The notes beneath the pieces were generated by a model. That model made no database searches. It was not told where the DNA came from and was given only the letters and a program-made list of their open reading frames with translations. Shown here piece after piece: positions 19,898-54,691 of a stretch of 64,000 bases of DNA. Positions within the stretch are counted from its first letter, which is position 1, and each line of letters starts with the position of its first letter. Source of the stretch: Alphaproteobacteria bacterium (lineage in GTDB: Bacteria; Pseudomonadota; Alphaproteobacteria; JBMOFM01); the NCBI GenBank assembly GCA_049318825.1, contig JBMOFM010000006.1, forward strand, positions 50,013 through 114,012, read 5' to 3'. The position numbers and the translations under genes are program-made.

Positions 19898-21214
19898 ATG
19901 TGTTACACATTGCCCATGCCTTTATCCAGCCCTTCACCAAACCCTAGCGCGGCCGCTTCTGCGGTTGATTCCCTGCAGCAATATCGCTTGCAACAAGTGG
20001 AACAAGAGTTGCAAGAGCTGAAAGCGCGCGCGCAGGAAAGCCAGAAAGACTGGTTGCAGCGTTTAGAAAATAGCCAGAAAGAGTGGCGCAACGAAATTCA
20101 GGTGGAGCGGGATCAATATAACAAATCCGATGAACACCACCTCAATTTATACGAAAAACACCTCAATACGATTAGCGTTATTTTGGGTTTATTCGCAGGT
20201 GTGGTTGTGCTACTGAACTTTTTAGGGTGGCTGTTCGGGCGAAAATGGGTGAATGATTTTCTTGCTAAAAAAATCAATGAAAGCTTGGATAAAAAAGTAG
20301 ATGAACATATTAAAACATTCATTGACCCTCTTGAAACAAAGTTAAAGCAGAAAATTGTAGATCTTGAAGAACAAGGCCAACAGCTAATAGCTGAGCAAAA
20401 ACAGCAAGGCAAGTATCTACAAGCAACCCAATATTATGTGGATGCTGGCCGAGCGCTTGAAGAAAGAAATTATCTCCAAGCGATTGATTTATATAATGAC
20501 GCCATTGAGCTGAACCCGAAATTTGCTGAAGCCTATAATAATCGTGGGAATGCTAAGGCCGCGCTTGGTAAGCATGAAAAAGCAATCGAGGATTATAATG
20601 AAGCGATTAAGTTGAATGAGAATTATGCTGAGGCCTATAATAACCGTGGGAATGCTCATAGAAATCTTGGTGAGCATGAAGAGGCACTGGCAGATTATAA
20701 TAAGGCGATTGAGCTAAATGAGAATCTTGATATGCCCTATAATAATCGCGGGGTTGCTAAAGCAAGCCTTGGGAACTATGAAAAGGCAATCGAGGATTAT
20801 AATGAAGCGATTAAGTTGAATGAGAATTATGCTGATGCCTATCATAATCGTGGGAATGCTAAGGCCGCGCTTGGTGAGCACGAAGAGGCAATCACGGATT
20901 TTGATAAGGCGATTGAGCAGAACCTCAATGATGCCGAGACCTATAATAATCGTGGAGTTGCTAAAGCAAGACTTGGGAAGTACGAAGAGGCATTGGCGGA
21001 TTTTGATAAGGCAATCAGCTTGAAGCATGATTATGCTGGTGCTCATATTAATAAAGCTCGTATTTTTGCGCAGCAAAATCAGCCAACAAAGGCCTTGGTG
21101 GCCTTAGAACAAGCTATTCTCTATGATAAAGGCTTCAAAAAGCAAGCTAAGGAAGAAGCTGTTTTCAAGGTTTTGCAGGATAATCCAGAGTTTATAAAAT
21201 TAACAAAAGAATAG
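19898..21214 (+). CDS. membrane-anchored coiled-coil plus TPR-repeat protein
   Basis: N-terminal coiled coil and one TM (VILGLFAGVVVLLNFLGWLF), then at least 7 near-identical 34-aa TPR units (AEAYNNRGNAKAALGKHEKAIEDYNEAIKLNENY). The DNA-level repeats create antisense shadow ORFs. Confidence 0.6.
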   Translation: MCYTLPMPLSSPSPNPSAAASAVDSLQQYRLQQVEQELQELKARAQESQKDWLQRLENSQKEWRNEIQVERDQYNKSDEHHLNLYEKHLNTISVILGLFAGVVVLLNFLGWLFGRKWVNDFLAKKINESLDKKVDEHIKTFIDPLETKLKQKIVDLEEQGQQLIAEQKQQGKYLQATQYYVDAGRALEERNYLQAIDLYNDAIELNPKFAEAYNNRGNAKAALGKHEKAIEDYNEAIKLNENYAEAYNNRGNAHRNLGEHEEALADYNKAIELNENLDMPYNNRGVAKASLGNYEKAIEDYNEAIKLNENYADAYHNRGNAKAALGEHEEAITDFDKAIEQNLNDAETYNNRGVAKARLGKYEEALADFDKAISLKHDYAGAHINKARIFAQQNQPTKALVALEQAILYDKGFKKQAKEEAVFKVLQDNPEFIKLTKE

Positions 21215-21299: not shown

Positions 21300-21660
21300 C
21301 ATCCCCCCCCCTCACCCCTACCCTCTCCCAGAGGGAGAGGGGAAAATAAGGGCAGTCTCTCTCTCAGAGTGAGAGGGAGAAATAAGCGAGCACTTCTCCC
21401 AGAGGGAGTAAAATACTACCCTCTCCCATAGGGAGAGGGGAAATAAGGGGGTACCCTCTCTCCCAAAATTATAAAAACTGGGAGAGGGCTGATACATTTA
21501 CCCCCTCTCCCTTTGGGAGAGGGCAGGGTGAGGGTGTGCTTTCCCAAAAAAGAGACGGGAAAGGGATAAAAAAGGACGGCACTATCCAATTTATAAAAAA
21601 CGCAATTTTACTTAAACTCCCTCTCCCCCAAATTATAAAAACTGGGAGAGGCTGATGGTT
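21300..21660. repeat. cluster of short palindromic (hairpin-forming) repeats built on CCCTCTCCC-N3-GGGAGAGGG
   Basis: At least six units, at about 21321, 21354, 21393, 21419, 21453, 21501 and 21619. Variants include ccctctcccagagggagagggg and ccctctcccatagggagagggg (both followed by gaaaataaggg), ctctctcagagtgagaggg, and ccccctctccctttgggagaggg. Two larger-loop copies share about 35 bp (tcccaaaattataaaaactgggagagg, at 21463 and 21624). The cluster lies in the 480-bp gap between convergent genes. Confidence 0.7.
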
Positions 21661-21695: not shown

Positions 21696-22271
21696 TCAAC
21701 TCATGGCGGGGAGGCCAGCCTGCATCACATATAACAGGGTGAACAGGCGGCGGGCGGTATCGATATTAATATCCACCTTGCCTTTTAACCGCTCTTGCAG
21801 CATGGCGGCCCCTTCATTATGCAGGCCACGGCGTCCCATATCCACGGCTTCTATCTGGGTGAGGCTGCAGCCACGGCTTACGGCCGCATAATAGCTATCG
21901 CATACCATGTGATAATCGCGAATAATGCGGCGGAAAGGGCTCAGCGATAAGCCCAATATGCCCAATATTTCCCCTGCCTGATTGGCCAGCGTTAAAATTA
22001 AGCGGTTATCCTTCACGCCCAATGTTAAGGAATAGGGCCCTTCAGGGAAATGATGCGGGGCAAAATAATTATCTTCCAGCAAATCATACACGGCCACCAT
22101 CCGCTCATGCCCCATTTCTGGGGTGGGCGAGGTTTCGCAGCCTTCGTCGAAGTTGAGTTTGATGATTTTCAGATTGGCCGATGGCACGGCAGCACTATCC
22201 TTATTCCCACTTATATTGAGGTTTTTAACAGGCTGCGGGGCAGCAGAAGACGTACAACCATCAGGGCACAT
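21696..22271 (-). CDS. UPF0262-family protein
   Basis: Conserved HERMVAVYDLLEDN, GPYSLTL, PFRRIIRDYHMVCDSYY, IEAVDMGRRGLHNEG and TARRLFTLL. Adjacent to hisG, as in many alphaproteobacteria. Confidence 0.6.
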   Translation of the reverse strand: MCPDGCTSSAAPQPVKNLNISGNKDSAAVPSANLKIIKLNFDEGCETSPTPEMGHERMVAVYDLLEDNYFAPHHFPEGPYSLTLGVKDNRLILTLANQAGEILGILGLSLSPFRRIIRDYHMVCDSYYAAVSRGCSLTQIEAVDMGRRGLHNEGAAMLQERLKGKVDINIDTARRLFTLLYVMQAGLPAMS

Positions 22272-22354: not shown

Positions 22355-23029
22355 TTAGCCACGGATGGAAAGCTGTTGGCATACATCTGTAAACTTTGCA
22401 ACCCAGCCATGCACTTCATGTGAGCGGGTTTTACTGGCCGAGCGGTTAACCACCAACCGTGAAGAAATATCGGCAATAATTTCTACCTCTTCCAGCCCAT
22501 TGGCCTTTAAGGTGGAGCCAGTGGAGACCAAATCCACAATGTAATGGCATAAACCCAGCAAGGGGGCAATTTCCATGGCACCATTCAGTTTAACGCATTC
22601 GGCCTGAATGCCCTTATTGGCAAAAAAATTGGCCGTGAGGTGGGGGTATTTGGTGGCCACGCGCACATGGCTTGCGCCATTACCCACCGCCCCAACCCCT
22701 GAAGGGGCAGCCAAGCTCAGGCGGCAATGGCCGATATTAAGATGCAAGGGGGCGTAAATTTCACTATAATTAAATTCCATCAATACATCCGAGCCACACA
22801 CCCCTATCTGTGCGCCGCCAAAAGCCACAAAAGTGGCCACATCAAAAGAACGCACCCGCACCAAGCGCACATGCGGGTGTTGGGTGGCAAACATTAATTG
22901 GCGGCTATGCTCATCGTAAAAAGCGGGTTCTGCTTCTATGCCCGCCATGCTTAACAGGGGCATTAACTCGCGGGCGATGCGCCCTTTGGGAACGGCAATG
23001 GTTAAGGGAGACAATGCAAAACAACCCAT
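22355..23029 (-). CDS. hisG: ATP phosphoribosyltransferase (short form)
   Basis: LTIAVPKGRI, RLVRVRSFDVATFVAFGGAQIGVCGSDVLMEF; length 224 aa. Confidence 0.85.
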   Translation of the reverse strand: MGCFALSPLTIAVPKGRIARELMPLLSMAGIEAEPAFYDEHSRQLMFATQHPHVRLVRVRSFDVATFVAFGGAQIGVCGSDVLMEFNYSEIYAPLHLNIGHCRLSLAAPSGVGAVGNGASHVRVATKYPHLTANFFANKGIQAECVKLNGAMEIAPLLGLCHYIVDLVSTGSTLKANGLEEVEIIADISSRLVVNRSASKTRSHEVHGWVAKFTDVCQQLSIRG

Positions 23030-23155: not shown

Positions 23156-24412
23156 ATGCTAAGCTATCACCAGAATATCTTGCATCTTGATGATGTGCCC
23201 CTGCCCCTTATTGCCGAAAAATTTGGCACGCCATGCTATATTTACAGCCAAAAAAAGCTGCATGAGCAATATCACCTTCTGGCTAATGCCCTAAAGGGGG
23301 TGGATGCCCGCATTTGTTTTGCGGTAAAGGCCAATAGTAATTTAGCCGTGTTGAAAGCCTTGGGTCAATGGGGGGCTGGGGCGGATATTGTTTCAGCGGG
23401 GGAAATGAAGCGGGCACTGGCGGCAGGTATAAAAGCCGAGCATATGGTATATTCTGGCGTGGCTAAAACCACTCAAGAAATGGAATTTGCCCTTGGGCAA
23501 GGCATTGGCCAAATTAATGTGGAAAGCGTGCCAGAAATAGCCGCTTGGTCGGCCGTGGCCAGCCGTTTGAATAAAATTGCCCCTATTGCTATTCGCGTGA
23601 ACCCCGATGTGGATGCCGGCACCCACGCTAAAATTACCACGGGGCTAAAGCATAATAAATTTGGCATTGATTTGGCCATGGCACTGGAAGTTTGCCGTAT
23701 TGCCCAAACGCAGCCCCATGTAAAATTGGTGGGGTTGGCTTGTCATATTGGCTCGCAGCTTACCAGCCTTACGCCATTTCGCCGTGCTTTTAAGCGTTTG
23801 CATAAAGCGGTGTTGATGTTGGCAGAACAGGGCATCACGCTGGAGCGGTTGGATATTGGCGGTGGTTTGGGGGTGGCGTATAACACCGAAACCCCGCCCC
23901 CCGTGGAAGATTACGCTAAGCTTATTCGTGAAGAATTGGGCGATTTGGGGCTGAAATTGGTGTTGGAGCCGGGGCGTTTTCTGGTGGCAGAAGCGGGCAT
24001 ATTGCTCACACAAGTGGTGGTGGTAAAAACATTGCCCGAACGCCGTTTTTTACTGGTGGATGCGGGCATGAATGATTTGGTACGCCCCGCCATGTATGAT
24101 GCGTGGCACAATATTTTGCCCGTGCAGCAGAATAACAACAGCGAAACACTAGATTTTGATGTGGCAGGGCCGGTGTGTGAATCATCGGATGTGTTTGGCT
24201 ATGATCGGCTATTTCCTGCCAATATTGCCACGGGCGCGCTGTTGGCTATTACCCATGCGGGGGCTTATGGCTCGGTGATGTCTTCTTTTTATAATAGCCG
24301 CGCGCTTGTGCCAGAAATATTGGTGCATAATCAACAATTGGCGATGACCAGACAACGTGTTAGCATTGAAGAACAGATGAACTGGGAAACAATACCGGCT
24401 TGGCTCACATAA
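23156..24412 (+). CDS. lysA: diaminopimelate decarboxylase
   Basis: CFAVKANSN PLP-lysine motif, GGGLG, EPGRFLVAEAG, CESSD; 418 aa. Confidence 0.9.
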   Translation: MLSYHQNILHLDDVPLPLIAEKFGTPCYIYSQKKLHEQYHLLANALKGVDARICFAVKANSNLAVLKALGQWGAGADIVSAGEMKRALAAGIKAEHMVYSGVAKTTQEMEFALGQGIGQINVESVPEIAAWSAVASRLNKIAPIAIRVNPDVDAGTHAKITTGLKHNKFGIDLAMALEVCRIAQTQPHVKLVGLACHIGSQLTSLTPFRRAFKRLHKAVLMLAEQGITLERLDIGGGLGVAYNTETPPPVEDYAKLIREELGDLGLKLVLEPGRFLVAEAGILLTQVVVVKTLPERRFLLVDAGMNDLVRPAMYDAWHNILPVQQNNNSETLDFDVAGPVCESSDVFGYDRLFPANIATGALLAITHAGAYGSVMSSFYNSRALVPEILVHNQQLAMTRQRVSIEEQMNWETIPAWLT

Positions 24413-26880: not shown

Positions 26881-26970
26881 GGATATTGGCGGCGCGTGGC
26901 GTTGTTGCTGTGGTGTTTTTGGTGTAAATAAATTATTTATTTTAGGTAAATAATTTTTTACTACCATCGG

Positions 26971-27837
26971 GTGTTATGCGTTATGGCCGAAATTCTGGAT
27001 AAAAATGGGGATGTTATTTTTTCTATGAAGGGTTCCGATCTGGAAGCCGTATCTTACCTGCAAAATAATACAACTATTTCTATGCGTGGTATAGCCTTAG
27101 AAAAATGTAAGGGTAGTTTTTTTGATCAATTGGGGAAACTGCAATCCAGATCTGCTAATGTTTTTTCCAGCACTTCTCATAGACCCAAAGATATGCGGGA
27201 GGGTAGCTTTGTTCAATGCTGGCATGAAAACTATTATCCGATATCAGCCTATGATTTTTCTGGGGCAATTTTTAAGGATTGTTTTATAAAGGTTTCTTCT
27301 TCAAAAGCAGATGGTTTTCACTTATGTAATTTCCGCGCTGCGCAATTTATTAACTGCACCATCACCGGAAATTTTCATTATTGCGATCTTTCAGGGGTAG
27401 ATTTTAGTAACAGTAATACAGCCAGGGTTAAATTTGGTGATAATTGGTATGATGATAATAGTCATTTAGTTAGTTATGGGGTTGCTCTACCCAAAAAAGT
27501 GGAGCGCGTAAAAAAAAGAATAGAGCAAATTTTCAATTGGGATAAAATTATTCAAACACCGCCGCAACATGTTGGCGGTATTACGCCAGCCCTACAACAA
27601 CAGCTGGAAGCTATTATTAATGCTTCGCCTGAGCAGGCACAGCGATTATTACATGAAGCGAGACCGCAAGATATATTGGCTCTGGAATTGGCGGCTGATC
27701 TTTCTACGCTTTACAATAAAGTTGCCTTACCCGCCGATGATTCACTTGAAAATCACCAGCAGCGGCCTGATTTAACCAACCAACAAATTGCTGATATTGT
27801 GCGTATGGTCATGAAAAATCGCGGCCGCCGTCCTTGA
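26971..27837 (+). CDS. hypothetical protein with pentapeptide-repeat-like segments, carried on a roughly 1.1-kb insertion
   Basis: 288 aa. Central CNFRAAQFINCTITGNFHYCDLSGVDFSNSNTARVKFGD resembles pentapeptide-repeat units. Flanked by the 84-bp direct repeats. Confidence 0.45.
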   Translation: MLCVMAEILDKNGDVIFSMKGSDLEAVSYLQNNTTISMRGIALEKCKGSFFDQLGKLQSRSANVFSSTSHRPKDMREGSFVQCWHENYYPISAYDFSGAIFKDCFIKVSSSKADGFHLCNFRAAQFINCTITGNFHYCDLSGVDFSNSNTARVKFGDNWYDDNSHLVSYGVALPKKVERVKKRIEQIFNWDKIIQTPPQHVGGITPALQQQLEAIINASPEQAQRLLHEARPQDILALELAADLSTLYNKVALPADDSLENHQQRPDLTNQQIADIVRMVMKNRGRRP

Positions 27838-27888: not shown

Positions 27889-27933
27889 TTATAGTAGATG
27901 AACTATAAGGATGCTTAAGTTCATCTACTATAA
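27889..27933 (+). terminator. perfect 16-bp inverted repeat (stem-loop) downstream of the inserted gene
   Basis: ttatagtagatgaact - 13-nt loop - agttcatctactataa, followed by an A/T-rich stretch. It could be a terminator or a recombination site. Confidence 0.5.
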
Positions 27934-39247: not shown

Positions 39248-40036
39248 GTGAGTAATGAAGCAGCCGAAATGGAAGCACAGGAAAAATATAGCACAATGAT
39301 GCTGGCGGTGGATGCGATCAGAGCCTATCAAGAAAAAAACTCTGATTTTATTTGGCAGAGAAAAGAAAATTTTCTGAGCGAATATCGACAGGGTCGGCGT
39401 GATTTTGCAGGTGAAGATTTGCGCGGGTTGTGCCTTGAATATAGCGGTATCCCACAATTTGAGAATTTAGTGCTGGATGATGCTAATGTAAGTGGCAGTC
39501 AATTCACAAGAGTAAAGTTCATTAATTTAAGCGCGAAAAATGCCCTATTCACTGATGTGGAAATGATAGAGATTATTGCTGAAGGGGCTGATTTCAGCGG
39601 TACTAATTTAGATAATATTGATGGTCATGAAGCCAGATTAGGCGGTTCAAATTTTTTTGGTGCGTCCCTCATTTATGCAAGTTTACGAAAAAGCAGTTTA
39701 TGGGAGTGTAATTTTACCGATGCGGATTGTACTTATGCCCAATTGAATGAGGCAAGCCTGAGAAGAGCAGATTTATGGAAAGCGTGTTTCTTGGCCGCCG
39801 GTCTTACAGAGGCTAAATTACAAGAAGCGAAATTGTACGATGCGGATTTTAGATTAGCGAACATTAGCGCCGCAAAATTTGAAAAGGCCGTGCCCAATAG
39901 CCAAACAATATGGACGGGCAGCCGCAATAGCCCTGAATCATTGCCAGAAGGCATGACGGCAGAGGCATTCAGCCAATTACAAAACCCTTCTGTAAAAAAA
40001 GCTGCCCCTAAAAGAAAGTTGGGATTGTGGTGGTAA
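39248..40036 (+). CDS. pentapeptide-repeat protein, paralog 1
   Basis: 262 aa, possible GTG start. The central region has runs of A-[DN]-[LF]-x-x pentads (ADFSGTNLDNIDGHEARLGGSNFFGASL...ADLWKACFLAAGLTEAKLQEAKLYDADFRLANISAAKF). Confidence 0.65.
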   Translation: MSNEAAEMEAQEKYSTMMLAVDAIRAYQEKNSDFIWQRKENFLSEYRQGRRDFAGEDLRGLCLEYSGIPQFENLVLDDANVSGSQFTRVKFINLSAKNALFTDVEMIEIIAEGADFSGTNLDNIDGHEARLGGSNFFGASLIYASLRKSSLWECNFTDADCTYAQLNEASLRRADLWKACFLAAGLTEAKLQEAKLYDADFRLANISAAKFEKAVPNSQTIWTGSRNSPESLPEGMTAEAFSQLQNPSVKKAAPKRKLGLWW

Positions 40037-40189: not shown

Positions 40190-40966
40190 ATGAGCAATGA
40201 AGCAGCCGAGATGGAAGCACAGGAAAAATATCGCACAATGATGCTGGCGGTGAATGCGATCAGAGCCAATGAAGGAGTGTCTGGTCAGGCAGCACAAAGT
40301 TTTGCTAGCGATTATCAACATGGGCGGCGTGATTTTGCAGGCGAAGATTTGAGTGGGTTGTGGCTTAACTATAGCGGTATTCCACAATTTGAGAATTTAG
40401 TGCTGGATGGTGCCAAAGTAACTGGCGGTGTATTCACAGGAGTAAAGTTCATTAATTTAAGCGCGAGAGATGCCCTATTCACTGATACGCAAATGCAAAG
40501 GGTTATTTGTGAAGGTGCTGATTTCAGCGGCGCTAATTTAGATAATATTGATGGTCATGAAGCCAGATTAAATGGTTCAAATTTTTTTGGTGCGTCCCTA
40601 ATTCTCGCAAGTTTACGAAAAAGCAGTTTATGGGAGTGTAATTTTACCGATGCGGATTGTACTTATGCCCAATTGAATGAGGCAAGCCTGAGAAGAGCAG
40701 ATTTATGGAAAGCGTGTTTCTTGGCCGCCGGTCTTACAGAGGCTAAATTACAAGAAGCGAAATTGTACGATGCGGATTTTAGATTAGCGAACATTAGCGC
40801 CGCAAAATTTGAAAAGGCCGTGCCCAATAGCCAAACAATATGGACGGGCAGCCGCAATAGCCCGAAAACCTTGCCAGAAGGCATGACGGCAGAGGCATTC
40901 AGCCAATTACAAAACCCATATGTAAAAAAAGCTGCTCCCACAAAAAAATGGGGATTGTTGTGGTAA
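40190..40966 (+). CDS. pentapeptide-repeat protein, paralog 2
   Basis: 258 aa. The N-terminal 20 aa and C-terminal 150 aa are near-identical to paralog 1; the middle has diverged. Confidence 0.65.
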   Translation: MSNEAAEMEAQEKYRTMMLAVNAIRANEGVSGQAAQSFASDYQHGRRDFAGEDLSGLWLNYSGIPQFENLVLDGAKVTGGVFTGVKFINLSARDALFTDTQMQRVICEGADFSGANLDNIDGHEARLNGSNFFGASLILASLRKSSLWECNFTDADCTYAQLNEASLRRADLWKACFLAAGLTEAKLQEAKLYDADFRLANISAAKFEKAVPNSQTIWTGSRNSPKTLPEGMTAEAFSQLQNPYVKKAAPTKKWGLLW

Positions 40967-46483: not shown

Positions 46484-47791
46484 ATGAAGGGTTTAACGCG
46501 CCAGCAATGGATTGTTTTTATTGCGGCTTGGTTGGGTTGGGGCTTTGATGTTTTTGACGGATTGCTGTTCAATTACGTTGCCCCCAATTGCGTGCCAACC
46601 CTGTTGGGGCTTGAGATTGGCTCTCCTGCTGCCAAGGCTGCCACTTTGTATTGGACAGGCCTCATCACCTCTATGCTATTGCTGGGCTGGGCGGCAGGTG
46701 GAATTATTTTCGGCTATATTGGCGATAGGTTAGGGCGCAGTAAAACCCTGTTGCTCACCATGTTATTATATGCTTTGGGTACTGGCTTATGTGCTTTTGT
46801 GCCGAATATGGAATTATTATTACTGTGCCGTTTTATTGCCAGCCTTGGTATTGGTGGGGAATGGGCAGCGGGGGCTTCCATGGTGGCCGAAGCCATGCCC
46901 GAAAAATACCGCGTGGAAGCAGGGGCGTTGTTATATACCTCTGCGCCCATTGGGTTGTTTTTGGCCACAGCGGTGAATGCGATGATTACTGGTTTATTTC
47001 CTGATCAACCTGAGGTCTCGTGGCGTTATGTTTTTCTTTGTGGGTTAATTCCTGCTGCTTTAGCCTTTGTTATCCGTTTTTTCTTAAAAGAACCAGAACG
47101 CTGGCAAGAGGTGGCACAAAAGACAAAACCACCCCGTATTAGTGAATTATTTTCAGCCGAAAACCGCCGCTTTACTCGCAGCGGCGTATTAATGGCTTTG
47201 ATTGCTTTGCTCACATGGTGGAGTTGCAATGCTTTTATTCCCGTGGTGGCGGTGGGTCTAGGCCATGCCAGTGCAGAGGCTACAGGCATTATCGCCACGC
47301 AAGGCTTATTAGAAGGCTGGAAATCATGGCTTACTTCTGGCTTTAATTTGGGTGGCTTATTGGGTACATTGCTCACTATTCCAGCGGCCAAAATATTGGG
47401 CAGAAAAAAAATGTTCAGCCTTTATTTTGCGCTGGCTTCTCTTGCGTTACTCACGGCTTTTAGTGGGTTCATGCCGCAAGAGAAAATAGTGTGGACGGGC
47501 TTATATTTTGTGATTGGTCTCACGGTTTTTGGCGTATTTGGTAGTTTTACTTTTTACCTACCGGAACTTTTTCCTACCAGATTGCGCGCTACGGGTTCGG
47601 GCTTTTGCTATAATATTGGCCGCGTGATTACCTCTGTGGGCCCTTTTTTGGTCGGCAGCATCGCCGCACAAAAATCCAACGCCCTGCAAGGCGCGTTGGA
47701 TTTATTATTCTGGGTGGGCTTTATTCCCTTAATTGGCATTTTACTGATGCCTTTAGTGATAGAAACAAAAGGCCAAACATTGCGGGATTAG
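46484..47791 (+). CDS. MFS transporter
   Basis: 435 aa with 12 predicted TM and MFS loop motifs (G-x-x-x-D-R-x-G-R-like GDRLGRSKTLL). Confidence 0.7.
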   Translation: MKGLTRQQWIVFIAAWLGWGFDVFDGLLFNYVAPNCVPTLLGLEIGSPAAKAATLYWTGLITSMLLLGWAAGGIIFGYIGDRLGRSKTLLLTMLLYALGTGLCAFVPNMELLLLCRFIASLGIGGEWAAGASMVAEAMPEKYRVEAGALLYTSAPIGLFLATAVNAMITGLFPDQPEVSWRYVFLCGLIPAALAFVIRFFLKEPERWQEVAQKTKPPRISELFSAENRRFTRSGVLMALIALLTWWSCNAFIPVVAVGLGHASAEATGIIATQGLLEGWKSWLTSGFNLGGLLGTLLTIPAAKILGRKKMFSLYFALASLALLTAFSGFMPQEKIVWTGLYFVIGLTVFGVFGSFTFYLPELFPTRLRATGSGFCYNIGRVITSVGPFLVGSIAAQKSNALQGALDLLFWVGFIPLIGILLMPLVIETKGQTLRD

Positions 47792-49593
47792 TTGGATTGG
47801 CCATTATCAATTCTCTCCCCCATGAGGGCGCCATAGGCGGTGCTGAAGCCGGGGGTAGTGGCACCATTATATACCCCGCCTTCATGGGTGAAGTTCTGCA
47901 ATAGTTGGGTGTGTACCACCGCTATACCCGCTTGTACCAAATGCTGAACAAGTTGTGCCAATTCTATTCTGTTTTCTATAGCGGTGCCTTGATTTTTTAA
48001 CAGAAAGCGGCAGCGTTGATGATCCACCAGATAGGGGTCCATCAAGCTGGGCCACACCTCTTGCCCACGGTTGGTGATGCGTTGTAGCACATAATTTTCT
48101 CCCGCTGCTTCTTGCAATTGCTGCGCTAAAGATTGCAGAGCAATGATGGTTAATAACCGCCCCTGTTCTTGATATTTTTTCAATAGGGCAAGGGCTTCTG
48201 GTGCTGGCATTTGCTCAATAGATGCCGTGAAATAGCTATTATTAAACGACAAGCCGGCTTTTAAGGTGCGCACCCCCCAACTGATATATTCGCGTACACT
48301 CTCTGTTGTATGAAAATGGCTCACATTTAAGATGTCTTCATAATTTAAGCCTGTTTTCTGGTGCCAATATTGTAGAATATTGGCCTCTAATCCGTGCCAT
48401 TCAATAAACACATCCATCCCTAGAATATCGGTTTTTTGGGCTTTTACCAACATGGGTGGCGCCACGATTTTTTCTTTATGCGCGCGAAACTTATCCCATT
48501 TCAAGCAGCGTGCCTGTAGTGCCCCTTCTGGCACTTTTTGGCCGGATTTTATTTTTTCTAAACGCTGGGCAATTTCATCGCCAAATTCGTGGCAACCACG
48601 CTTTAATGAAACCGATGTTTCTTTCTCTTTTTCTTCTTGGTAAGCCCCGCGAATATCGCCAGTATGCACACCGTCTTGTAATGTCCATAACAGGGCATGG
48701 TATAAATGGCGCGCCGCTGTTTGATTACCATCGCCAATATGCACCAGCATATCAATAGCGGCCATTAATAAAGCCGTGGGGTTGGCCAGATTTTTGCCAG
48801 CAATATCGGGCGCGGTGCCGTGCATGGCTTCAAACATGGCATAATCTTGACCAATATTGGCTGAGCCCACCAAGCCAACGCCCCCCGCTAATTTTGCTGT
48901 AATATCTGAACCAATATCCCCAAAAATATTACTGGTAACCACCGCATCATATTTTTCTGGTTTAACTGCCAGTTCTGCTAGGCCATCATCAATATTTTTG
49001 AAAAATGAGGTGATGTGGGGCTCATATTCTTTAGCCAATTGCCAGAATATTTTTTCAAATAACCCGCCAGTATTTTTCAAAATATTGGGTTTTTCTAGCC
49101 CCAACATGGTTTTTCTACCCTGCTGCAGGGCCAATTCAAAAGCAATACGAATCGCTTTTTCACAGCCTTGATGGCTCATTAAACGCAAGGCCATTTTTAC
49201 ATTGGGGCTTTCATCATATTCAATGGCGGCGTATAAATCTTCAATATTTTCGCGCACAAATAATAAATCCATTTGTGGAAAATGGCTATCCACCACGGGG
49301 TAGAAGGAAGCACAGCGGCGCACCGAAACGCTTTGTTCAAAACCCTTACGCACCGTTACATTAAAGCTTTTACTGCCACCAATAGAAGAGGGGGTTTCTG
49401 TTGGCCCTTTCAGCACTATTTTATGCTTGCGAATAAGCGCAAAACAATCAGTAATTTCTTGCGCGCTGGCTTCTTTACCCAAATGGGCAGGAATAAAATC
49501 GATTTTCGCGCCCACTTTTTGTAAAAGACTAACCACCACATCACTAATTTCAGGCCCAATACCATCACCTTTAACCAAAACCACTGAACGCAT
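47788..49593 (-). CDS. isocitrate/isopropylmalate dehydrogenase-family enzyme fused to a roughly 255-aa C-terminal domain of unknown function
   Basis: N-terminal 345 aa: VVLVKGDGIGPEI, NIFGDIGSDITAKLAGGVGLVGSANIG, GTAPDIAGKNLANPTALLMA. The C-terminal 255 aa have no recognisable motif. Start set to ATG 49593 (RBS ggaga); the track extension to 49794 reads antisense through tRNA-His. Confidence 0.65.
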   Translation of the reverse strand: MRSVVLVKGDGIGPEISDVVVSLLQKVGAKIDFIPAHLGKEASAQEITDCFALIRKHKIVLKGPTETPSSIGGSKSFNVTVRKGFEQSVSVRRCASFYPVVDSHFPQMDLLFVRENIEDLYAAIEYDESPNVKMALRLMSHQGCEKAIRIAFELALQQGRKTMLGLEKPNILKNTGGLFEKIFWQLAKEYEPHITSFFKNIDDGLAELAVKPEKYDAVVTSNIFGDIGSDITAKLAGGVGLVGSANIGQDYAMFEAMHGTAPDIAGKNLANPTALLMAAIDMLVHIGDGNQTAARHLYHALLWTLQDGVHTGDIRGAYQEEKEKETSVSLKRGCHEFGDEIAQRLEKIKSGQKVPEGALQARCLKWDKFRAHKEKIVAPPMLVKAQKTDILGMDVFIEWHGLEANILQYWHQKTGLNYEDILNVSHFHTTESVREYISWGVRTLKAGLSFNNSYFTASIEQMPAPEALALLKKYQEQGRLLTIIALQSLAQQLQEAAGENYVLQRITNRGQEVWPSLMDPYLVDHQRCRFLLKNQGTAIENRIELAQLVQHLVQAGIAVVHTQLLQNFTHEGGVYNGATTPGFSTAYGALMGERIDNGQSN

Positions 49594-49717
49594 ATATTCT
49601 CCTATTGATAAAAGGGCAGTTAGAGAGCCATTTTTCTTTGCATGTGTCATCCTGACTTGAAAACAATATTGACGAAAGAGTAAAAATCTGAATAATGCAG
49701 TTTTATTAGTTAAGCAT

Positions 49718-49793
49718 GGCGGTTGTAGCTCAGCGGTAGAGCCCTCGGTTGTGGTCCGAGTTGTCGTGGGTTCGAACCCCATCAATCGCCCCA
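49718..49793 (+). tRNA. tRNA-His (GTG anticodon), with encoded G-1 and CCA
   Basis: Cloverleaf: G-1, acceptor gcggttg/caatcgc, D-arm tagctcagcggtagagc, anticodon stem ctcgg/ccgag with loop ttGTGgt, T-arm gtgggttcgaaccc, discriminator C, CCA. Confidence 0.85.
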
Positions 49794-49812
49794 TTCTTCA
49801 ACGATAATCTAT

Positions 49813-53472: not shown

Positions 53473-53541
53473 TCCATAAAAAAGACTAGCCATAAAAAAG
53501 GGTTGGCCATAAAAAAGGGTTGGCCATAAAAAAGGGCTGGC
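53473..53541. repeat. 17-bp tandem repeat (about 4 units) in the bioA leader
   Basis: (t/g)ccataaaaaag(a/g)(c/g)t(a/t)g units: tccataaaaaagactag, gccataaaaaagggttg x2, gccataaaaaagggctg. The last unit merges into a terminator hairpin. Confidence 0.7.
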
Positions 53542-53561
53542 ACAATGTACCAGCCCTTTTT
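53535..53561 (-). terminator. intrinsic terminator of the curlin-like gene (bidirectional hairpin)
   Basis: gggctggcacaatgtaccagccc stem-loop flanked by T-runs on both strands, 20 nt after the stop at 53582. Confidence 0.65.
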
Positions 53562-53581: not shown

Positions 53582-54691
53582 TTACTGCGTAATAGAAGCA
53601 GTGTTGCTATTGCCTTGTTGAATAATACCAGCAATGTTACCAAAACCAGTTTGTATGAAGCTTTGGTAGTTGCTATCACCAATTTGTGAAGCGGTAATCA
53701 CGTTACCACCACTATATTGGCTAGCATAAATGCTGTTGAAATTACCAATTTGTTCGCCAGAGAAGCTTTGGTAATCATTTTCTTGATACAGCACGATGAT
53801 GTTGCTGTTGCCATTTTGGTAGGCATAAGCATAATCATAATTGCCCAATTGGGTAATATCAATCAGGTTATTTTCACCAAAGCTGTATAAATTAGTTGTA
53901 TTAAATTCACCCACGCGGAACAGGTTAATCACGTTGAACGTGCCAGCACCGCCCGTGCTATCTTGGTAAATAGAATCGGAGTTATTATCCCCAGTTTGGA
54001 TCAGGCTGTAGCTGTTGCCATCGCCATATTGAGAAATCAAACCAAAATTATTATTACCATCTTGCTCTAAATAAGCCTGATTATTGGAGCCATTTTGGTA
54101 CAAAATACCAAGGTTATAATTACCATTTTGCAAAATGCTGGCTAGGTTATTATCGCCATTTTCCTGCACGATGCTGGCGGCATTACCATCGCCATATTGG
54201 CTGATGGAGCCACTATTGCCCGAACCATTATATTGGGTAAGGAAAGTAGCGTTGCCATTGTCTTGGCTGTAAATAGAGCCAATGTTAGAATCGCCAAACT
54301 GAAGAGCATTAGATTGGTTATCATCGCCATATTGGGTGATAGAAAACACATTACCATTACCCACTTGGAAACCATATTGGTAGCCCGAATCGGTAAAATA
54401 AATACCGGGGCCTACAGAATTGCCATTACCATATTGGTTAACGCTAGCATTGTTGCTGTTGCCATTTTGTAAAAAAGGTTGAAACACACCTTCATTCAAA
54501 AAACCAATAATGTTGCTATCGCCTTGCTGATTGCCATAAAAGCTGTTGCCCTCACCGCTTACCTGATCGATACCCACTTGGTTGTTGAGGCCAGATTGGC
54601 TGATGGTGCTGGAGTTGCTATCAGCGTGCGCTGCGCTTGCTGCTAGGGTTAGCACCAACGCCATGGTGCCAAATAGAAAATTCTTGCTCAT
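53582..54691 (-). CDS. secreted curlin-repeat protein (CsgA/CsgB-like functional amyloid subunit)
   Basis: Signal peptide ...AASAAHA, then at least 10 imperfect 20-23-aa repeats with the curlin consensus S-x-I-x-Q-x-G-x-x-N-x-A-x-I-x-Q (ISQYGDGNAASIVQENGDNNLASILQNGNYNLGILYQNGSNNQAYLEQDGNNNFGLISQYGDGNSYSLIQTGDNNSDSIYQ). Confidence 0.6.
   Translation of the reverse strand: MSKNFLFGTMALVLTLAASAAHADSNSSTISQSGLNNQVGIDQVSGEGNSFYGNQQGDSNIIGFLNEGVFQPFLQNGNSNNASVNQYGNGNSVGPGIYFTDSGYQYGFQVGNGNVFSITQYGDDNQSNALQFGDSNIGSIYSQDNGNATFLTQYNGSGNSGSISQYGDGNAASIVQENGDNNLASILQNGNYNLGILYQNGSNNQAYLEQDGNNNFGLISQYGDGNSYSLIQTGDNNSDSIYQDSTGGAGTFNVINLFRVGEFNTTNLYSFGENNLIDITQLGNYDYAYAYQNGNSNIIVLYQENDYQSFSGEQIGNFNSIYASQYSGGNVITASQIGDSNYQSFIQTGFGNIAGIIQQGNSNTASITQ

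Follow-up and report, generated by a model that had tools for sequence, protein, structure and literature searches.

An array of BoxC/PIT/TM_ECO-type hairpins, probably expanded in place, between a pair of convergent genes in an uncultured alphaproteobacterium

Three-block repeats of the form 5'-CCCTCNCCC-N3-6-GGGNGAGGG-N3-GGGNGAGGG-3', named TM_ECO, have been counted at 3610 copies over 262 proteobacterial genomes, and related G/C-rich motifs occur in cyanobacteria (Holder et al. 2015, Nucleic Acids Res, PMC4666352). In the account given in that paper, TM_ECO is equated with the BoxC repeat of the 1990s, attributed there to Bergler/Bachellier, and with the potential intrastrand triplex (PIT) elements of Hoyne/Maher 2000. 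Here we analyse a dense array of such hairpins in a 64-kb stretch of DNA from an uncultured alphaproteobacterium with ~45% G+C (64,000 nucleotides of contig JBMOFM010000006.1, assembly GCA_049318825.1; the whole stretch is called the window below). Judged by its sequence, the array is a local pile-up of this known and very widespread BoxC/PIT/TM_ECO repeat and not a new kind of element. We assign a probability of about 0.7 to the reading that it is a locally expanded cluster of this family, a structural repeat prone to instability, whose role at transcript 3' ends is incidental at most.

In E. coli K-12, TM_ECO is always intergenic, and at five loci in E. coli two copies form an inverted pair; the neighbouring genes show no prominent functional class and mobility genes do not lie nearby (PMC4666352). 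On its own, as single-stranded DNA in vitro, the G-rich strand adopts a purine-motif triplex of very high stability, as observed by circular dichroism (CD) and nuclear magnetic resonance (NMR), and this triplex was not seen when the complementary strand was present (PMC4666352). According to work cited in the same paper, PIT elements blocked DNA polymerase in vitro and were without effect in vivo, and they had neither promoter nor terminator activity in E. coli. Loci bearing the motif vary more among E. coli strains than control spacers do (PMC4666352). A second close parallel comes from Enterobacter sp. 638, where 100 copies of a 'CCCTCTCCCXX(X)GGGAGAGGG' palindrome have been described (Taghavi et al., PLoS Genet 2010, PMC2869309).

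The array in the window compares closely with these elements. The published pattern is matched exactly at 21309-21341 on the minus strand and, once a second loop of 2 nucleotides (nt) is allowed instead of 3, also at 21503-21534 on the plus strand; as a positive control, the same expression recovers both Table 1 copies in the hrpB-mrcB spacer of E. coli MG1655. On the minus strand, 21309-21341 reads CCCTCTCCC-TCT-GGGAGAGGG-TAG-GGGTGAGGG, so that on the plus strand the third block CCCTCACCC lies at 21309-21317, the loop CTA at 21318-21320 and the hairpin at 21321-21341. Holder et al. tested oligonucleotides with these same block sequences (PMC4666352). An earlier sequence-only reading of this DNA had likened the array to repetitive extragenic palindromic (REP) sequences and bacterial interspersed mosaic elements (BIMEs), or to Rickettsia palindromic elements (RPEs). 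The third block (CCCTCACCC / GGGTGAGGG) adjoining the hairpin points instead to BoxC/PIT/TM_ECO, and neither to REP/BIME repeats associated with a REP-associated tyrosine transposase (RAYT) nor to RPEs. Two further traits of the family are present as well: the motif is intergenic, only short open reading frames (ORFs) without Pfam matches overlapping it, and its copies are paired and inverted.

The purine blocks of both motifs, 21515-21534 (+) and 21309-21329 (-), also fit a G-quadruplex pattern, (G3N1-7)x4. A quadruplex of the G-rich strand was excluded by NMR for the isolated E. coli strand, for which the triplex was favoured (Holder et al., PMC4666352).

Eight hairpin units lie within ~350 bp (window positions 21307-21652), inside a 481-bp spacer bounded by the stop codons of two convergent genes at 21214 and 21696. 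The cluster is real and non-random. Three perfect CCCTCTCCC-N3-GGGAGAGGG hairpins (21321-21341, 21419-21439 and 21503-21523) stand against 0.00 expected from dinucleotide-preserving shuffles of the window, and of the 21 sites in the 64 kb that match GGGAGAGGG with no more than one mismatch, where 7.2 would be expected, 15 lie within 21309-21652. The sequence-only reading, which had described a dense palindrome cluster of at least six hairpins between convergent genes, was right on the cluster and its setting, and repeat finding together with folding raised the number of hairpins to eight. It had also seen no other copy in the window, and pattern and repeat searches of the 64 kb likewise returned no further copy of any unit; the other short inverted repeats in these 64 kb bear no relation to the array. 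The array sequence is identical in a Logan contig assembled from SRR30676221, which may derive from the same sample and is a weak independent check. From left to right, the spacer contains the following features:

21303-21308, plus strand: run of C before the first motif
21309..21341, minus strand: full three-block BoxC/PIT/TM_ECO motif, an exact match to the published pattern; RNA fold of 21305-21345, -18.5 kcal/mol
21342..21352, plus strand: tail GAAAATAAGGG after the first hairpin, the spacer of a duplicated 35-36-nt unit
21354..21388, plus strand: unit 2, degenerate hairpin and tail, CTCTCTCTC-AGA-GTGAGAGGG followed by AGAAATAAGCG; 74% identical to unit 1
21389..21415, plus strand: unit 3, truncated, TCTCCC-AGA-GGGAG followed by TAAAATA; repeat family D2, 100% over 14 nt
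21416..21450, plus strand: unit 4, CTA, perfect hairpin (21419-21439) and tail GAAATAAGGGG; 89% identical to unit 1
21451..21498, plus strand: unit 5, long-loop hairpin (G)TACCCTCTCTCCC-AAAATTATAAAAACT-GGGAGAGGG followed by CTGATACATT; repeat family D6
21503..21534, plus strand: unit 6, the second three-block motif, CCCTCTCCC-TTT-GGGAGAGGG-CA-GGGTGAGGG, in the opposite orientation; match to the relaxed pattern
21539..21563, plus strand: weaker hairpin CTTTCCC-N11-GGGAAAG; fold -9.5 kcal/mol, z -2.2; repeat family D12
21586..21599, plus strand: orphan copy of the AT-rich loop, CCAATTTATAAAAA, without stems; repeat family D5
21613..21660, plus strand: unit 8, second long-loop hairpin CCCTCTCCCCC-AAATTATAAAAACT-GGGAGAGG followed by CTGATGGTT; repeat family D6

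Every unit is computed to fold as an RNA hairpin on either strand, with single-hairpin energies between -6.4 and -20.4 kcal/mol. At the strong end are the second motif (-20.4 kcal/mol over 21499-21538) and unit 4 (-18.4 kcal/mol, z -3.9), the latter lacking the third block that the former carries at 21526-21534 (GGGTGAGGG) behind its 2-nt second loop. Unit 2 forms an 11-bp stem (21356-21366 / 21370-21380; -16.0 kcal/mol), whereas the truncated unit 3 pairs over 5 bp (21396-21400 / 21404-21408; -6.4 kcal/mol). The two long-loop units, with AT-rich loops of 14-16 nt, have stems at 21456-21465 / 21479-21488 (unit 5; -15.7 kcal/mol) and at 21620-21627 / 21644-21651 (unit 8; -13.5 kcal/mol, z -3.4), unit 8 being the hairpin closest to the 3' end of the right-hand gene. 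The hairpin at 21539-21563 may be a decayed relative of these units or unrelated to them. Taken as a whole, the spacer folds far more stably than its shuffles (z = -7.4 on the plus strand and -6.6 on the minus strand). The two three-block motifs (21309-21341 / 21503-21534) form a 27-nt inverted repeat, 93% complementary and extending to ~33 nt, and this pairing over a long distance is part of the minimum-energy fold of each strand. The two motifs stand ~160 nt apart, third blocks outward, and bracket four derived hairpin units; two more hairpins follow to the right.

The locus thus has the three-block sequence of BoxC/PIT/TM_ECO (CCCTCTCCC - short loop - GGGAGAGGG - 2-3 nt - GGGTGAGGG), its intergenic placement, its close inverted pairing and its lack of mobility genes found nearby. 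The neighbourhood is also unconserved in one relative, in line with the local variability reported for the family. The layout differs. In the hrpB-mrcB pair of E. coli the motifs are <20 nt apart with third blocks inward, whereas here they face outward across ~160 nt, and the gap between them is filled with derived hairpins. These hairpins lack the third block, so triplex formation would be impossible for them. Two of the units here have a 14-16-nt AT-rich loop, and the host is an alphaproteobacterium of ~45% G+C. Compared with Enterobacter sp. 638, the hairpin is identical and occurs there in twos and threes at gene 3' ends; the copies in that genome are dispersed and have TGT/ACA loops, whereas the window holds a single locus in 64 kb with AGA/ATA/TTT loops.

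How the array grew can be read, to some extent, from its internal homologies. Units 1, 2 and 4 are head-to-tail repeats of 35-36 nt (family D1; 74% and 89% identity of units 2 and 4 to unit 1), and Tandem Repeats Finder gives period 36, 2.4 copies and 78% matches. Units 1, 4, 5 and 6 have retained the TA(C) seen in the first motif's second loop, and units 5 and 8 share their loop, 3' arm and CTGAT tail. The 35-bp core that the sequence-only reading ascribed to two longer units exists as a shared AT-rich-loop core, but it is exact over 19 nt, 96% identical over 26 nt, and reaches ~38 nt only with two indels. Similarly, a tail does recur after several units as had been stated, but the exact GAAAATAAGGG is found once (21342-21352), the other occurrences being the variants GAAATAAGGGG (21440-21450) and AGAAATAAGCG (21378-21388). 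Throughout, the derived units keep the TA(C) prefix, a GAAA(A)TAAGGG tail or the AT-rich loop, and their third block is missing. These shared prefixes, tails and loops point to local duplication, and the derived units probably arose in place and not by separate insertions. The earlier description of the array as locus-specific holds in part: the derived units do look locally generated, but the motif family is widespread (at least 120 IMG/VR contigs and 321 plasmids).

The derived units would have been spawned from the left three-block motif, their founder, by slippage or by unequal exchange between direct and inverted copies, and no transposase would be involved in such local growth. Indeed, neither a transposase nor a member of the Y1 family was found by Pfam among 50 further ORFs of the window and the genes flanking the array, where housekeeping genes were seen. 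The array would then be structurally troublesome, evolutionarily unstable intergenic DNA with no dedicated function, whose hairpins may incidentally cap the 3' ends of both converging transcripts. A link to recombination or instability, which the sequence-only reading had raised, is possible.

The genes around the array are the following:

19898..21214, plus strand: TPR-repeat protein gene, 438 aa (ORF; Pfam TPR_1, 4e-57), the upstream flank, with its 3' end facing the array
21696..22271, minus strand: UPF0262 family protein gene, 191 aa (Pfam UPF0262, 8e-57), the downstream flank, with its 3' end facing the array
22355-23029, minus strand: hisG (Pfam HisG, 5e-47), after the UPF0262 gene
23156-24412, plus strand: lysA, after hisG

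The nearest relative that we found is a 2.2-kb JGI contig (L133), which encodes a UPF0262 protein 71% identical to that of the window and keeps the hisG-UPF0262 synteny; the best UPF0262 match among the GTDB representatives scanned is 51% identical. The equivalent spacer of this contig, ~395 bp long, contains a classic terminator (GC hairpin and T-run), and no trace of the motif or of an array was found in it. Hence the array is no ancient, conserved component of this locus.

Several points weigh against our reading. The comparison above involves a single relative, with a different convergent gene, and it shows non-conservation and not the direction of change. Genome-wide dispersal is a trait of the family, and further copies are absent in the 64 kb examined. 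The TM_ECO triplex was undetected in E. coli in vivo by dimethyl sulphate (DMS) footprinting (PMC4666352), so a structural mechanism for the instability is something that we infer. Additionally, the array may have a role in transcript 3'-end formation, incidental or real, and the 481-bp spacer is without any other canonical terminator-like site.

This last point leads to the alternative that the array serves both converging genes as a bidirectional transcription stop, a 3'-end protector, or both. RNA polymerase would pause at the stable stem-loops in either transcript, and 3'-to-5' exonucleases would be halted by them. In E. coli, REP hairpins are well established as protectors of mRNA. The position is apt, as the array sits exactly between two gene 3' ends and all its units fold on both strands. 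The relative with the ordinary terminator in the equivalent spacer also suggests that some stop signal is to be expected in the spacer of the window. Moreover, the palindrome of Enterobacter sp. 638 is often duplicated or triplicated at gene 3' ends, where a termination role has been presumed (PMC2869309). The hairpins themselves fit less well. Only 1 of the 16 hairpin/strand combinations has a T-rich tail, namely unit 4 on the minus strand (21439-21419, tail TAGTATTTTA), and the other hairpins are followed by purine-rich tails; a scan for intrinsic terminators, i.e. a GC stem-loop followed by a U-tract, gave 1 site compared with 1.5 expected in shuffles. The PIT elements lacked terminator activity in E. 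coli, as cited in PMC4666352, the host has canonical terminator shapes elsewhere in the window (for instance at 53529-53561), and eight units exceed what termination needs. The bidirectional terminator proposed from the sequence alone was accordingly not borne out by the scan, and we regard a stop or protector function as unlikely, if still a tentative possibility. A stop or stabiliser role and an unstable repeat are not mutually exclusive.

Could the array have arrived in one piece? The 228 bp from 21307 to 21534 might be one composite element resembling a miniature inverted-repeat transposable element (MITE), inserted as a unit, with the inverted three-block motifs as its terminal inverted repeats. 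The length is within the MITE size range, the terminal arms (27 nt, 93% complementary) extend to ~33 nt, and the segment is missing from the locus of the relative; an array in IMG/VR stretch L089 is similarly bounded. Against such an insertion, no direct repeat or target-site duplication is present at the ends of the inverted pair (flanks ...CATCCCCCC on the left and TGTGCTTTCC on the right), there is no second copy in the window, and no transposase among its scanned ORFs. The long-loop unit has zero matches in the JGI metagenomes, the related units at 21539-21563 and 21613-21660 fall outside the supposed ends, and the internal contents of the window and L089 arrays are completely different. 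We consider the MITE-like origin very improbable.

A REP/BIME-type cluster kept by a RAYT encoded elsewhere in the genome seems even less probable. The resemblance is general: short, imperfect, GC-rich palindromes in intergenic spacers, sometimes clustered in mosaics, with hairpins possible at transcript 3' ends. Additionally, units 1 and 4 start with CTAC, which is GTAG on the opposite strand. A GTAG head is typical of many REPs. Here CTAC corresponds to the second loop and the stem of the triplex motif, and it varies freely across the BoxC/PIT/TM_ECO family (TTA and CCG in E. coli), in which a GTAG-like head is unconserved. The sequence differs from that of REPs, in which a third block is lacking; the scanned ORFs of the window include neither a RAYT nor a Y1 transposase, and other copies are absent from all other intergenic regions of the 64 kb. 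Mobility genes are not near copies of the family either (PMC4666352). The likeness to RPEs goes no further than palindromic repeats in an alphaproteobacterium, and nothing of the in-frame, AT-rich, ~100-150-bp kind occurs at the array. RPEs are ~100-150 bp long, AT-rich and often in-frame inside genes.

Finally, the chance that the array is a small structured RNA or a degenerate CRISPR-like array is close to nil in spite of the strong structure predicted on both strands: Rfam has no match at gathering thresholds (the best sub-threshold score is 27.9 bits against a threshold of 100, and the best matches are eukaryotic microRNA hairpin models), no promoter-like site was found inside the array, the array is unconserved in the relative, and, as the sequence-only reading had already argued against a CRISPR, the units, which are palindromic and nearly contiguous, are irregularly spaced (36, 35, 27, 35 and 48 nt), and the 'spacers' would be 0-12 nt.

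The wider family was surveyed with the bare hairpin in IMG/VR, where at least 120 stretches matched; the counts that follow cover these 120 listed matches, with 184 hairpins. A third block, CCCTCNCCC or GGGNGAGGG, lies 1-5 nt away on one side only of 115 of the 184 hairpins, with a second loop of exactly 3 nt in 83 of these 115 motifs and of 2 nt in 11, and in a further 37 of the 184 it lies 6-50 nt away. A fixed 9-mer at a fixed offset means that this adjacency cannot be due to chance. The stretches range from 44 to 75% G+C, so that one conserved sequence is spread over very different genomes. Motif pairs within 300 nt are outward in four cases (for instance L068 and L089) and inward in two. 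A density of at least 4 hairpins per 360 nt is uncommon, at 6 of the 120 stretches. An array with the layout of ours is that of L089 (4577-4775; the same sequence is found in L117): a founder comes first, then two hairpins each followed by a 13-nt spacer TGAAAGATGTAA(C/T), next a hairpin that has decayed, and finally two founders of opposite orientation. A census of the gene context of the IMG/VR hairpins, in which a longest-ORF caller placed 101 of 176 'inside ORFs', was discarded, as the count results artificially from the over-long ORFs called in G+C-rich DNA.

Variants of the motif were also seen. A lineage variant in IMG/VR stretches L011, L033, L036, L063, L073 and L096 has its third block ~25-30 nt away from the hairpin and a second, small hairpin between the two (…GGGAGAGGGagggagc…gcggaaGGGTGAGGG). 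In Brevundimonas staleyi (L124; positions 8152, 17739 and 17877) the arms are CCCTCCCCC/GGGGGAGGG.

The 33-mer of the window is found at 80% coverage or more on 321 PLSDB plasmid records, which divide about equally into conjugative, mobilizable and non-mobilizable plasmids; the hosts include Klebsiella, Citrobacter, Aeromonas, Enterobacter, Escherichia, Rhizobium, Pseudanabaena and Planktothrix. The motif has been reported as without association to plasmids or phages (PMC4666352). No full-length copy was found in curated phage genomes, so the many IMG/VR matches are probably prophage or host sequence rather than phage carriage. A hairpin together with the tail of the window, 31 identical nt (CCCTCTCCCAGAGGGAGAGGGGAAAATAAGG), recurs at 2165-2195 of JGI contig Ga0209636_10049334 (L136), the only match in the JGI metagenomes. 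This copy sits between two peptide/nickel permease genes, with a second hairpin and outward third blocks nearby, in the same outward layout as the window array. The proteins of the contig are at most 92% identical to database proteins, and several of the close matches (at most 89%) are named Margulisiibacteriota. The 31-nt identity could be due either to chance or to transfer across phyla; by a rough estimate it is only marginally beyond chance. If the contig belongs to Margulisiibacteriota, it has no bearing on dispersal within the lineage of the window.

A more far-reaching possibility is that the array is a minisatellite growing from an inverted pair of triplex motifs, that such arrays multiply and diversify a family without a transposase, and that plasmids carry it between phyla. 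Replication stalling at hairpins or triplexes would drive repeated slippage, giving rise to hairpins without the third block and to new long-loop variants. The Margulisiibacteriota hairpin with its tail and the 321 plasmid records are compatible with minisatellite growth and plasmid carriage and do not show them; we hold this extended scenario to be distinctly doubtful.

The window has some other features of note. The inverted repeat at 53529-53561 (AAAAAGGGCTGGCACA-T-TGTACCAGCCCTTTTT; 16 nt, flanked by an A-run and a T-run) has the shape of a bidirectional intrinsic terminator and lies between an aminotransferase gene and a curlin-repeat gene. Around the ORF at 26971-27837, a 20-nt AT-rich inverted repeat stands just before (26920-26966), and a perfect inverted repeat of 16 nt, its arms spaced by 13 nt, just after (27889-27933; TTATAGTAGATGAACT / AGTTCATCTACTATAA); both could be operator-like or terminator-like sites. 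The longest ORF for isocitrate dehydrogenase (47788-49794, minus strand) overruns a tRNA-His gene (49719-49793, plus strand), so its true start must be further downstream. Two adjacent pentapeptide-repeat proteins (39248-40036 and 40190-40966), a curlin-repeat protein (53582-54691) and a second TPR protein (1605-2840) are also encoded, so that repeat proteins are fairly numerous for a stretch of 64 kb.

The idea of a new repeat family was dropped, as the array is tied to a motif that has been in the literature since the 1990s, with studies characterising it in 2000 and 2015. On its own, the array matters little. It does show the motif clearly in a host other than enterobacteria and cyanobacteria, namely an uncultured alphaproteobacterium, and it is an unusually large local cluster whose internal homologies appear to record growth by local duplication. 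The occurrences on plasmids and in the Margulisiibacteriota-like contig bear on the question of how a 33-nt sequence stays near-identical across phyla without a known transposase.

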